Source of the DNA: an uncultured delta proteobacterium
GTDB lineage: Bacteria > Desulfobacterota > Syntrophobacteria > Syntrophobacterales > Syntrophobacteraceae
Direction of reading: 5' to 3'
Assembly (NCBI GenBank): GCA_963808625.1
Contig: CAWEHK010000021.1
Span: forward strand, 32,001-96,000
Length of the DNA stretch: 64,000 nt
In this document: positions 59,782 through 64,000 of the stretch, one piece after another
How positions within the stretch are numbered: the first letter of the stretch is position 1
Layout of the letters: the number at the start of each line of letters is the position of its first letter
The notes under the pieces: model-generated
Told to the model about the DNA's origin: nothing
Database searches by the model: none
What the model saw: only the letters and a program-made list of their open reading frames with translations
Made by a program: the position numbers and the translations under genes

Positions 59782-60810
59782 TCACCTTTGCCAGAACGGC
59801 CGCGCCTTTTCGGCGGTCAGCTCCGGCGCCGAGAACGTGGCCATGTCGCCCAGCATCACCTCGAAACCGGTAATATCGCTGCGCACCCAGGGAGCGTAGT
59901 TGCTGCGCACGGTGAGGACCACTCGCAGCTCCAGGTCGTCCGAGCCATCTTCCAGGAGAAGCAGCCCGAGATTGTAACCATTGCGGCCGAGGCTGCGGTA
60001 GAACTGTTGGGCGTTCAGCACGCCTTGCGCCAGGGCCTGCCAGTGATCGTCGGTAGCCTGGCGCAGGGAGGTAACTCCTGGCAGAATGCCCCAGATTTCA
60101 AAAAAGCCCTCGGGTGCAAAAGCGGCCAGCCATTGCCAGGAACCGGTAGCGCCGATGGTGCGCTGCCCTGACTGTTTTTCAGATTGCAGATAAGCGGAGA
60201 AAAGACGTACGCTGGATTGACGGTGATACTCGGCGGCACGGCCTTGCAGGAAACGTTGGAAATTGGCGGGTGTACGGTCGGCCTGCGCCTGCAGGTGGGG
60301 ATGGAGCAAAGATCCGCCGGCCGAGGGCAGGTGATTCTGGGTGATGGCCATGAAGACCGCTGCAGGATCATGGGACAAGACCCGTAAAAGATAGTCCCGG
60401 CAGTTGAGGAAACTGTCCGTGTAGGATTGCAGAGCTGCCGTGCCGATCTCCACGAAGTGGCCATCGTCGAAAAGGCTTACCGCCGAGTAGCGCCCGTAGG
60501 GAAACAGGTTGGGAAAAAGCGTGGAGGTCCCTCGGGTCATGCGACCTTGCGGACACAGCTCAGGCGGAAACTGCGGGGTGCACGTGGCGATCCGGGCACG
60601 GCAAAACGGGCACTTGTCCCGGTCAGCGGCAAAGGGCGGCGGTGCGGGCAGAGCTTCCATGCCGGGCTCGCACTCTTCGCCGCGGCTGTAAGTAATCCGG
60701 CAGGTGCGCCCCGTGATGGGATGGGTGCGGATCTCGATGGGGCGATCGGCAGGAACGCCGGTGGGCAGCACAATCCGGGAATGAAATCTTTCCTGTTTAA
60801 ACTGCAACAT
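59782..60810 (-). CDS. Galactose-1-phosphate uridylyltransferase-like (GalT/HIT) protein
   Basis: IRTHPITG, CPFC, FPNLFPY and AGGSLLHPHLQ. Confidence 0.8.
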   Translation of the reverse strand: MLQFKQERFHSRIVLPTGVPADRPIEIRTHPITGRTCRITYSRGEECEPGMEALPAPPPFAADRDKCPFCRARIATCTPQFPPELCPQGRMTRGTSTLFPNLFPYGRYSAVSLFDDGHFVEIGTAALQSYTDSFLNCRDYLLRVLSHDPAAVFMAITQNHLPSAGGSLLHPHLQAQADRTPANFQRFLQGRAAEYHRQSSVRLFSAYLQSEKQSGQRTIGATGSWQWLAAFAPEGFFEIWGILPGVTSLRQATDDHWQALAQGVLNAQQFYRSLGRNGYNLGLLLLEDGSDDLELRVVLTVRSNYAPWVRSDITGFEVMLGDMATFSAPELTAEKARPFWQR

Positions 60811-60964: not shown

Positions 60965-61372
60965 TCACTGTGATCGCACTTCCAGCCTCAGCCCCTCGAT
61001 CTTCTCGAAATCGCGCCGGTTAGCCGTGATAACCGAATAGTCAAGGGAAATGGCCGTGGCTGCGATGATCAGGTCGTGGGCGCCGATGGTCAATCCCTTC
61101 TTTGCCAGGGAGGCCCAGATGCGTGCATAAATGCGCGCCACCGTGGTGTCGAAGGGAAAGATGGGGAATGACTCCAACACCTTTTCAACGAAGGACTGGC
61201 GCTTCAGCCGACGGGCCTCGGTATCGGCGCGTTCCACTCCATGCAGCAGTTCCGCAACGGTAACCACACTGATGCCGAATGGTTCATCCTCGCGACCAGA
61301 CACGAGGATTTGCACCTGTGCTCGGTTCCGTTCAAGGGAGATGATTTCGCTGGAATCAAAGATTACCCCCAT
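60965..61372 (-). CDS. vapC: PIN-domain (VapC-like) toxin
   Basis: IFDSS, VAELLHG, DLIIAATA and TANRRDF. Confidence 0.9.
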   Translation of the reverse strand: MGVIFDSSEIISLERNRAQVQILVSGREDEPFGISVVTVAELLHGVERADTEARRLKRQSFVEKVLESFPIFPFDTTVARIYARIWASLAKKGLTIGAHDLIIAATAISLDYSVITANRRDFEKIEGLRLEVRSQ

Positions 61373-61644
61373 ACCGTATCCTCCGGCAGAGGGGGTTGGG
61401 CTTTGACTGCCCCAAGAACGTCATCGGCAAAGTTGATGTCATCGGGATCGAGCTTCGGTAAGGTCTGAAAAATGCCTTTCAAATCGCCCATATGTCGGGG
61501 AGAACCGGCTTCATCAACCGGGACAAGGGCCGCCGCCGGTTTTCCCCCGCGAATGATCGTATAGCGGTCCCCACGGTATTTGATGTTGTTCAACAGTTCG
61601 GAAAAATGTCTGACCGCCTCGGTAGCGCTTATGTCTGGTCGCAT
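61363..61644 (-). CDS. Phd/YefM-family antitoxin
   Basis: ISATEAVRHFSELL..IIRGGKPAAALVP; overlaps the toxin start; SD GAGGAGG. Confidence 0.88.
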   Translation of the reverse strand: MRPDISATEAVRHFSELLNNIKYRGDRYTIIRGGKPAAALVPVDEAGSPRHMGDLKGIFQTLPKLDPDDINFADDVLGAVKAQPPLPEDTVWG

Positions 61645-62178
61645 GGTTTCCTCCTCGTAAAATATTATTATCATATTTTACACAAACAATGCGTGACCGG
61701 CAAGAGGACTCTGCCCCAATCGGGATAAATCGACATCGCCTCATGCAGCCCGAAGCCCCAGCCTCGACCCATCTCCAGAGTGACGTGGGAGAGCATGGCA
61801 TTGCACACGGGATTTTCAAATCACCTTTCCCATCCGCTCTGCGATAATGAGCAATACTGCAATTTCCCAGCGACCCGCGAGAGCCAGAAGAGGCAGCGCC
61901 AGGACATCGCGCACGATGCGACGCAGGGGGATAACCTGGCTGCTGACGATCAGGTTGTGACATGCCTCAGAAGAGGATTTCGCGATCTTACCTTGACTTG
62001 ATTTCTTATTCGTTGAGTACCGTGCCATTCAATGACTGTCTGACGATTTCCATTTCCACTCGAATGCTCCTTCTTCCTGTCTGGGCCGGCCCTGACCCGG
62101 AATGCTTGGTGATGGTGTTCTAAATTCTCGCGCCTTCCCACCGTAGAGCGTTTCCGTGGCGGGTCTCCAATTTGGATA

Positions 62179-62229
62179 TTGACATTCTGAATTATACGCA
62201 TATAAACGTATAGTAATATATTGCTATAC
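62179..62229 (+). promoter_or_regulatory. Promoter with overlapping palindromes (candidate ArsR operator)
   Basis: TTGACA-N16-TATAAA; TATACG-N8-CGTATA (62193-62212); GTATAGTAAT-AT-ATTGCTATAC (62208-62229). Confidence 0.65.
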
Positions 62230-62444: not shown

Positions 62445-62807
62445 ATGGAGCAAAAGAGAAGGAGGAACATCCTGTTGCCGCGGCGCAGGAGGCAATGGTG
62501 CTGCGCGAGCGAGCACTTCCAGACCGTCGCTTTTCTTGCAAAGAGCCTATCGGATGAGAACCGGCTGCGGATCATCCTCTGCGTGAGCAACGGCAAGAAG
62601 TCCGTCTCGAGCATCGTTGAGGAACTCGGTCTTTCGCAGCCCCTGGTTTCCCATCACCTGAAGGAGCTCAAGCGATCGCTGCTGGTCAAGATCGAGCGCA
62701 ACGGCCCTTTCATCTATTACGAACTGGTTGATGCGAGAATCCTCGATGTCTTTCGGACATTGAGCACCGTGGCAACGGATTTGCTGACCGCAAGGAAAAC
62801 CTTTTGA
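62445..62807 (+). CDS. ArsR/SmtB-family transcriptional regulator
   Basis: KSLSDENRLRII..LGLSQPLVSHHLKEL..IYYEL. The N-terminal 20 aa are uncertain. Confidence 0.9.
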   Translation: MEQKRRRNILLPRRRRQWCCASEHFQTVAFLAKSLSDENRLRIILCVSNGKKSVSSIVEELGLSQPLVSHHLKELKRSLLVKIERNGPFIYYELVDARILDVFRTLSTVATDLLTARKTF

Positions 62808-62832
62808 GAGAGGCGGAGGTGATCTGATCCGT

Positions 62833-63282
62833 ATGGAAGAGATGCTGAAAATAGTTGGCCACATGGATCCGGAAGAAGCGCTCACCGAAATATCCCAAGT
62901 CCTGAAAGTGCTTTTCTCCGCTTTGGGTGAAGAGGCGCGTTCGCAATTCCTGTGGGACCTCATGGGAGAGTCCCGGGGCGACAAGGTGTCGAGCCTGGTC
63001 CATCTCTGACTGGCCGAATGCATGGGCGAAGGTGTCGACCCGACGCAAATGTGTCAGAGACTGGTGGATAAGGTTGCCCAATCCAAACAACTGATGGCGA
63101 TGACCGATCCGGATCTCCTGGTGCTGTTCGAAGACTGGTTTGAAGAACTGGAAGAGGAGATCATCTCGCTCGTCAGCGAGCATGGCCCTCTCAAAGCGGG
63201 AGAGCTTGCCGAAAAGACCGGGCTCTCCCTGCGGGGGGCAACCTTCCTCCTCTCAAAGCTCAAACGTGAGGGAAAATTGTAG
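62833..63282 (+). CDS. Putative selenoprotein (149 aa; Sec59 at TGA 63007-63009) with a C-terminal winged-helix-like segment
   Basis: SD GGAGGT then ATG 62833, 58 open codons, TGA, then an in-frame continuation LAECMGEGVDPTQMC. SECIS-like hairpin at 63024-63041. The internal ATG at 63022 has no SD. Confidence 0.75.
63024..63041 (+). promoter_or_regulatory. Putative SECIS element
   Basis: GGGCGA [AGGTG] TCG-A-CCC. The loop starts 20 nt after the UGA, with lower pairings TGC/GCA and CTGGC/GTCAG. Confidence 0.65.
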
Positions 63283-63320: not shown

Positions 63321-64000
63321 ATGCAGAACAAGAGAACGACCTTCACAGCCCTTGTGGCGGTACTGCTTACGGTTGGGGCCCTCTGGCTTACCAATCGCGC
63401 CGTTACTCCCAAGCAGGCTGCATGGGACGATGTTTTGGCCGAAGCGACAGCCGGAGGCTACAAGATTATCACCACCGACGAGCTTTCCGAGCGCTATCAA
63501 AACGATGCCAAAAGCCTTCTCCTGGTGGACACTCGCCAGGAATGGGAGTATCGGACAGGGCATCTCCCGGGAGCGGTAAACTTTCCCATGGAGCCGACCT
63601 CATGGTCGAGATGGCGCAAGGCATCGGCACTCGAAACCTTCCTCGGGCCGGATAAGGATCGCACCATCATCTTCTACTGAGCGGGCCTCACCTGAGTCCG
63701 CAGCGACTCGGCGGCCCGTGTGGCCGTAAAGCTCGGTTATCAGAACGTCTACCGCGACCCTTATGGCTATCCTGAATGGCAGGGGAGAGGGTTGCCCGTT
63801 GCGAGCGCCCCGGCAGGCCTAGCCCAAACAAGCGAAGAGCCCAAGGCGCCGGGACCTCTTTACGGCTGGGCCATGATCTGGACCCTGTTGGGCATCTTCG
63901 CCGGTGGCATGGCCTTGAACCTCACCCCTTGCGTCTACCCCCTGATTCCTATTACCGTCTCCTACTTTGGCGGCCAGGCCACAAAGGGAGGAGAAGGCCA
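63321..64000 (+). CDS. Membrane-anchored rhodanese with two Sec (TGA 63678-80 and 63693-95) fused to a DsbD/CcdA transmembrane domain; 3' truncated
   Basis: VDTRQEWEYRTGHLPGAVN..IIFY-U-AGLT-U-VRSDSAARVAVKLGYQNVY..GYPEW..GLPV..ALNLTPCVYPLIPITVSYFGG, all in one frame. Confidence 0.88.
63711..63727 (+). promoter_or_regulatory. Putative SECIS element
   Basis: GCGGCC [CGTGT] GGCCGT. The loop starts 21 nt after the second UGA and 36 nt after the first. Confidence 0.65.

Follow-up and report, generated by a model that had tools for sequence, protein, structure and literature searches.

Segment 62833–63282 (+ strand) of the window, i.e., the entire 64,000 nucleotide stretch of DNA that was analysed, is almost certainly tsoA, a gene for a 149-aa selenoprotein whose family is already catalogued, and the 58- and 86-aa open reading frames (ORFs) lying within it are one gene. 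The gene call rediscovers a family that had already been curated, and the role proposed for TsoA below is a candidate one. Beyond the identity of TsoA, we add the invariant adjacency of tsoR, a TsoR without canonical metal sites, a palindrome at the promoter, Met-rich relatives, and a short UGA/Cys relative.

Identity and frame of tsoA

The reading frame extends from the ATG at 62833 through 58 codons to a TGA at 63007–63009, and from there through 90 codons to the TAG at 63280–63282, forming a single 149-codon frame; the Shine-Dalgarno sequence GGAGGTGA (62815–62822, + strand) is situated 10 nt 5′ of the ATG. The initial annotation had proposed that the two ORFs were joined in frame through the TGA and that a good Shine-Dalgarno sequence preceded the 58-codon ORF, in full agreement with this arrangement. 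When the UGA was read as selenocysteine (Sec), the product matched the NCBIfam model NF045695, “LULAXC motif selenoprotein TsoA”, at 225.8 bits (E 2.3e-67, model positions 2–144), where the curated cut-off is 170 bits. The LULAxC motif, with its one Sec, appears as L58-U59-L-A-E-C63 (LULAEC); the motif and the Sec count match the entry in Table 1 of a 2026 review (PMC13188914), which places TsoA among the predicted selenoproteins, expands Tso as “three selenoprotein operon”, and cites Haft & Tolstoy (2025, mSystems 10:e0141724). The protein had been annotated as unrecognised and without a named family, which is not supported because it passes the TsoA cut-off and TsoA stands in the table of the review. 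TsoA is not an ArsR, as it reached 18.5 bits against the ArsR/SmtB model NF033788 (cut-off 55).

Residues H57, U59, C63, M64, M73 and C74 of TsoA are conserved, and U59, C63 and C74 constitute three near-invariant chalcogen ligands (106/107, 107/107 and 107/107 genes, respectively). Their spacing is U-x3-C-x10-C, so that the U-x3-C-x9-C motif proposed earlier was off by one in its second interval. The closest named relatives were from Syntrophobacteraceae and other Desulfobacterota-type MAGs, at no more than 95% identity. The locus shares with the TsoA family a score above the cut-off, the LULAEC motif, the single Sec, and tsoR, tsoB and tsoC in order and above their cut-offs; it differs from the known Tso operon by a one-base insertion in tsoR and a frameshifted chromate-transporter gene after tsoC, while tsoA itself shows nothing different. 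A literature search returned no functional study of TsoA and none on a selenoprotein combined with a winged helix or an ArsR, and the primary Tso paper may already cover matters such as the helix-turn-helix (HTH), the operator and the relatives. The consulted parts of PMC13188914 hold no passage on “DNA-binding” and list TsoA as predicted only.

Codon 59 is very likely read as selenocysteine

Comparison of homologous loci indicates that the in-frame TGA at codon 59 (63007–63009, + strand) is very likely read as Sec. We compared 110 loci (80, plus 30 from genomes of the phylum, the window locus included), representing 108 distinct genes after de-duplication. Codon 59 was TGA in 109 of the loci and AGA in one, and in no locus was there a Cys codon, a TAA or a TAG at this site, or a pair of halves out of frame; the case that the earlier reader had named as refuting the single gene was not seen. 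Among the distinct genes TGA was present in 107/108, always in frame and down to 44% identity. A search of 401 phylum genomes with NF045695 gave a match in 41 genomes, above the cut-off in 30; exactly one TGA was found in 34/34 places above the cut-off and in 41/46 of all match places, the remaining five being partial C-terminal matches. The absence of Cys at the Sec position applies to the 110 loci, a limited sample, and Cys homologues are not required of selenoproteins. Only one homologue (L081:2446–2898) has AGA replacing the UGA, and its hairpin is still present; in one other tsoA locus the frame is cut short by a TAA 13 codons beyond codon 59. Several copies of tsoA were found in some genomes, i.e., four in G051, arranged in two close pairs (L137 and L138), and two in G061 (L136).

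The host genome carries selA, selB and selD, all above cut-off, and its selD has a TGA of its own. A tRNA-Sec was not found in the host assembly, which is 84.6% complete, where the best Rfam match was a tRNA-Trp; pattern searches, relaxed ARAGORN candidates, and BLAST and nhmmer searches with the tRNA-Sec of two relatives gave nothing convincing. Were the TGA instead a true stop (with two genes, or a pseudogene) or a Trp codon, which we consider extremely improbable, this would fit with databases holding mostly the 58- and 86-aa fragments, with W at the Sec site in 15/15 near-full-length database proteins fetched, and with the finding of the AGA gene, the TAA gene and no Cys form; yet the TGA is kept in frame in nearly every gene under SECIS-type constraint, and the Met-rich relatives described below are single chains across both halves. 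A Trp reading is further opposed by TGA being an ordinary stop here, as it ends tsoR and also terminates many tsoA homologues; the W in the database proteins is therefore most likely a gene-caller artefact. Assembled metatranscriptomes were also considered for evidence of expression: contigs of relatives covered parts of tsoA in 4/4 runs and, among the pieces listed, bridged the UGA in two. These were not counted, since word shares were 0.05–0.09 and contigs cannot show transcription.

A conserved SECIS-like hairpin follows the UGA

The hairpin noticed after the TGA was borne out as a SECIS-like element at 63024–63041 (+ strand), 20 nt after the UGA, with a 6-bp stem, one bulged A, and the loop AGGUG. 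Bacterial SECIS elements, by the criteria in Fig. 2 of PMC13188914, have a loop of 3–9 nt, a stem of 4–16 bp, a G within the first two loop positions, and a distance of 16–37 nt from the UGA; the 5-nt loop, 6-bp stem and 20-nt spacing of the tsoA hairpin all fall within these ranges. Pairs 15–32, 16–31 and 20–26 were invariant in 108/108 genes, and two further pairs held in 107/108 and 108/108. Pair 17–30 covaried, being G-C in 90 genes and A-U in 18 (which may stem from few events), and the A-U form costs a Gly-to-Asp change. The codons beneath the hairpin were nearly frozen, with Glu66 as GAA in 108/108, Gly67 as GGT in 106/108 and Val68 as GTC in 103/104, as compared to a synonymous variation of 0.08–0.66 at the other conserved tsoA columns. 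Because of the compensatory pair and the near absence of synonymous change at codons 66–68, the conserved EGVDP probably reflects in part an RNA constraint rather than protein function.

Folding energy was rejected as a proof of the SECIS, as it was not above that of shuffled sequences (a z of −1.26 over 54 nt and of −1.48 over 21 nt). The value itself depends on the stretch folded, being −7.1 kcal/mol for 21 nt and −16.3 kcal/mol with the lower stem, where the criterion is −7.5 or lower. The hairpin is supported through its conservation.

The C-terminal tail is predicted as a helix-turn-helix

An AlphaFold model of TsoA, built on 42 homologues, was all-helical, with a pLDDT of about 94 at residues 101–149, 59–68 at residues 41–90, and a pTM of 0.41. 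The tail forms a three-helix HTH core (helices 93–117, 122–129 and 133–145) and scored 23.9 bits against Pfam HTH_24 (cut-off 21.9). The model has no strand and no beta wing, and 87/107 genes end by residue 149, so that, of the winged-helix-like tail proposed in the initial annotation, the HTH stands and the wing does not. U59 and C63 lie one turn apart along one predicted helix, within the low-confidence region of the model; the model is uncertain throughout its N-terminal half, and hence gives no basis for placing C74 near U59/C63. The structure prediction and Foldseek search that had been suggested gave this confident HTH tail and, with the TsoA model, no Foldseek match at E 0.001; the fold searches barely probed residues 1–92. 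A search of solved structures by the TsoA sequence gave none better than E 0.34.

The tail matched structurally the HTH or winged HTH of Lrp, ROK, IclR, DeoR and Z-alpha proteins (Z 6–7.6, rmsd 1–2 Å over ~50 residues); the same list includes domains from non-regulators (ESCRT-II, cullin WHB), and there was no match at Z 8. TsoA is acidic, with a net charge of −5 to −16 to which helix 93–117 contributes about −7, and residues 132–149 form a basic stretch (mean +3.6) in which K142 is present in 106/107 genes and R134 in 90/107, and in which R145 is conserved as well. The first outward position of the recognition helix, 133, varies among the genes, and an invariant Phe stands at position 138. 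The model thus predicts an HTH fold for the tail, for which DNA binding is a candidate function only.

The operon, its promoter and TsoR

The gene order at the locus is tsoR-tsoA-tsoB-tsoC, each gene being above its NCBIfam cut-off. The ArsR/SmtB-type regulator tsoR occupies 62445–62807 (+ strand; conserved core 62514–62807; NF045707, 172.7 bits vs 115). The 5′ part of tsoB, encoding a rhodanese/DsbD fusion with a UxxxxU motif (TGA at 63678 and 63693), occupies 63321–64000 (+ strand) and continues past the window, where tsoC follows; the full tsoB read beyond the window reached 1024.6 bits against NF045694 (cut-off 805), and tsoC reached 145.4 bits against NF045708 (cut-off 45). The tsoR gene was directly 5′ of tsoA in 77/77 loci with enough flank, and the downstream genes were less constant (tsoB in 60/73 loci, tsoC in 50/59). 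By ORF clustering with translation table 11, which counts selenoproteins by their fragments, the recurring neighbours of tsoA in 80 loci included VTT/DedA proteins (27 loci) and members of the fatty-acid-hydroxylase family (17 loci), as well as thioredoxin reductase (13 loci) and an ArsM-type methyltransferase (11 loci). A chromate-transporter homologue was present in only 7/59 loci; at our locus, the ChrA-type chromate-efflux gene after tsoC (L001:5508–6685, just beyond the window) is split by a frameshift near L001:5800. At L001:5067–5180 the tsoB frame extends past the end usual for its family into the start of tsoC, which may represent another indel.

Upstream of tsoR there is a putative sigma-70-like promoter at 62179–62206 (+ strand), with TTGACA at 62179–62184, a 16-nt spacer, and TATAAA at 62201–62206; in many loci the region upstream of tsoR likewise has TTGACA with this AT-rich element after it. 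An imperfect 8-6-8 palindrome (62199–62220) lies over the −10 box and is likely the TsoR operator, a putative assignment made from pattern counts. The palindrome pattern, allowing up to three mismatches, was found in 58/77 upstream regions (the same 77 from which it was derived), in 0/77 coding controls, and in shuffled sequences with a mean of 0.6 and a maximum of 3. It was also present in 20/31 loci of the short relative, which were not used to derive it.

We examined 41 TsoR proteins for metal sites as defined for ArsRs in PMC11672702. None had the alpha5 site DxHx10Hx2(H/E) and none had C(V/A)C; 15 had no Cys and five had two or more. That paper describes As(III)-sensing ArsRs as using three Cys, and some ArsRs as simply lacking inducer sites. 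The TsoR core is mildly basic, with a charge of −1 to +5, and a pI of 10.2 for TsoR was dropped as an argument because that value came from a frameshifted N-terminus. An extra base in tsoR near 62508–62509 shifts the N-terminus relative to that of its relatives, and the base at 62508/62509 was absent from contigs of relatives in 4/8 runs; it may represent an assembly error, or it could be a real lesion.

Met-rich and short relatives of TsoA

A search with the TsoA profile gave 399 representatives at E 0.001. Among the 150 matches listed of these 399, the shared motif allowed 46 non-TsoA proteins to be anchored; 42/46 kept the equivalent of Cys74, and their N-termini average 26% Met vs 7% in TsoA. 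None of the six Met-rich relatives tested matched Pfam at 1e-4. These relatives share with TsoA the P-x-x-M-C motif, the acidic helix and the HTH, and an ArsR gene is upstream of them at L130, L132, L133 and L134; unlike TsoA, most are without an in-frame stop, and a Met-rich N-terminus replaces U59/C63. Cu(I)/Ag(I) binding is a property of tracts rich in Met. A divergent TsoA-like gene (Y-U-INEC; L134:2269–2730, from G326), without the Cys74 equivalent, was found between an ArsR gene and MbdU.

A short Met-rich relative with an in-frame UGA (MMEK-U-MQM) was seen first in G203, at L131:2220–2582 (G203:C90), and then at the metagenome loci L139–L202. Its UGA is its own and, in contrast to that of TsoA, is situated about 11 residues further along. 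The 64 metagenome loci sampled gave 56 distinct genes after removing two without an anchor and six duplicates; 48 of these had TGA (47 after discounting one false anchor) and eight had a Cys codon. A 6-bp hairpin, mostly with an AGGU loop, lies 23 nt downstream of the UGA; it is kept also in the eight Cys genes, and the hairpin alone therefore does not discriminate between them. The G203 genome has selA above cut-off. Against NCBIfam, the short relative matched only TsoA, at 58 bits, and no model above its cut-off; it is not obviously named in Table 1 of PMC13188914, and the BSepDB family list may bear on this. Neither NCBIfam release 20 nor, in its consulted parts, the 2026 inventory of 119 families names a short selenoprotein of this kind. 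It is possibly an uncatalogued selenoprotein subfamily, by which the known bacterial selenoproteome may be enlarged. Neighbours in the 64 loci were ArsR (45), an ArsM-type protein (17), MbdU (13), arsenate reductase (4), and Acr3 (3).

The TsoA clade was separated from the short family in the tree (support 100/100), and a common clade was not rejected (p-AU 0.283). Two independent origins of Sec, in TsoA and in the short relative, are not established by the tree and are suggested only by the differing positions, because the joint clade was not rejected.

A possible role for TsoA as the sensor for TsoR

Family membership, conservation of the UGA and the hairpin, gene order, and the HTH fold in the model are established. 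We tentatively propose, at somewhat short of an even chance, that TsoA is the signal-binding partner of TsoR for a soft metal or metalloid, where each step past family membership is one that we infer. SelB would read the hairpin and insert Sec59. U59, C63 and C74, along with nearby Met and His, may then bind a soft metal or metalloid, for example As(III), Cu(I) or Hg(II). TsoR, without a canonical metal site, would repress the promoter via the palindrome, and the acidic helix and HTH of loaded TsoA would make contact with either TsoR or the operator complex and so alter this repression, turning on the downstream thiol-redox and detoxification genes.

A sensor role is plausible given the constancy of tsoR (77/77), the ArsR gene beside the short relative (45/64), the ligand-free TsoR, the three near-invariant ligands, the Met-rich relatives, the acidic TsoA, the selA, selB and selD of the host, and the neighbouring genes (ArsM-type methyltransferases, MbdU, arsenate reductase, Acr3). 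Counted against it are the pLDDT of 59–68 over residues 41–90 with a pTM of 0.41, and commonest downstream genes that serve thiol redox (tsoB, tsoC, thioredoxin reductase) and not efflux. Charge complementarity between TsoA and TsoR is weak, given the mild basicity of the TsoR core. ArsRs without inducer sites exist, as noted in PMC11672702; the basic residues 132–149 fit with nucleic-acid binding, and tRNA-Sec was missing from the incomplete host assembly.

The initial annotation favoured a Sec-based sensor that may bind DNA; in this reading TsoA would itself act as a transcription factor on DNA, and its Sec/Cys site would turn the HTH on or off. The HTH_24 score, the fold matches to Lrp, ROK, IclR, DeoR and Z-alpha proteins, and a basic last helix with conserved R134, K142 and R145 all agree with this reading, but it appears unlikely to us: the wing is absent, the protein is strongly acidic overall, an ArsR repressor is always adjacent, position 133 is variable and 138 an invariant Phe, the fold list includes ESCRT-II and cullin WHB with nothing at Z 8 or E 0.001, and the single conserved upstream palindrome seen is explicable by TsoR. 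Also improbable is that TsoA serves, without binding metal, as a redox sensor or relay with TsoB and TsoC, through a U59–C63 selenenyl-sulfide or persulfide carriage. TsoA lacks a thioredoxin fold and the CxxU/UxxC spacing, tsoB is absent downstream in 13/73 loci where tsoR is never absent, and the Sec-free relatives keep one Cys only, plus many Met; the placing of U59 and C63 one turn apart on a predicted helix would nevertheless suit such a relay, as would the neighbouring rhodanese-DsbD fusion, TsoC and frequent thioredoxin reductase, and, according to PMC13188914, a redox function is to be expected for most of the selenoproteins that are uncharacterised. It is quite doubtful that TsoA, outside any regulation, only chaperones or buffers metal(loid)s in the manner of ArsD or of a copper sponge rich in Met; the Met-rich relatives and the ArsM, ArsC and Acr3 neighbours agree with such a function, which leaves unexplained the retained HTH and the fixed place behind an ArsR gene in both subfamilies.

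The proposal of TsoA as the partner of TsoR may be extended to a split metalloregulator, in which a ligand-free repressor works with a separate family of soft-metal(loid) sensors using Met tracts, Cys, or Sec at two positions; this is possible, though on the unlikely side. If it is true, a selenoprotein acts in transcriptional control. The operator candidate, a TsoR free of ligand sites and the Met-rich relatives offer a handle on whether a selenoprotein does so. SdpR of Bacillus subtilis is an ArsR-family repressor controlled via a partner protein, SdpI, a membrane protein that senses a peptide toxin. An ArsR-type repressor controlled through a partner protein would be shared with the Tso system; SdpI is membrane-bound, whereas TsoA is predicted to be soluble. 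The likeness in working to As(III)-sensing ArsR repressors, as described in PMC11672702, would be in the three soft ligands and the ArsR-controlled promoter; in those the ligands are on the repressor, whereas TsoR lacks such ligands, and it is the separate TsoA that carries the candidates for this role.

Genes upstream of the operon

A Phd/YefM-type antitoxin gene and a PIN/VapC toxin gene, a type II pair, lie upstream of the operon at 60965–61674 (− strand). The region 59782–60810 (− strand) encodes a GalT-like protein, a weak match (E 4e-5) far below the cut-off.
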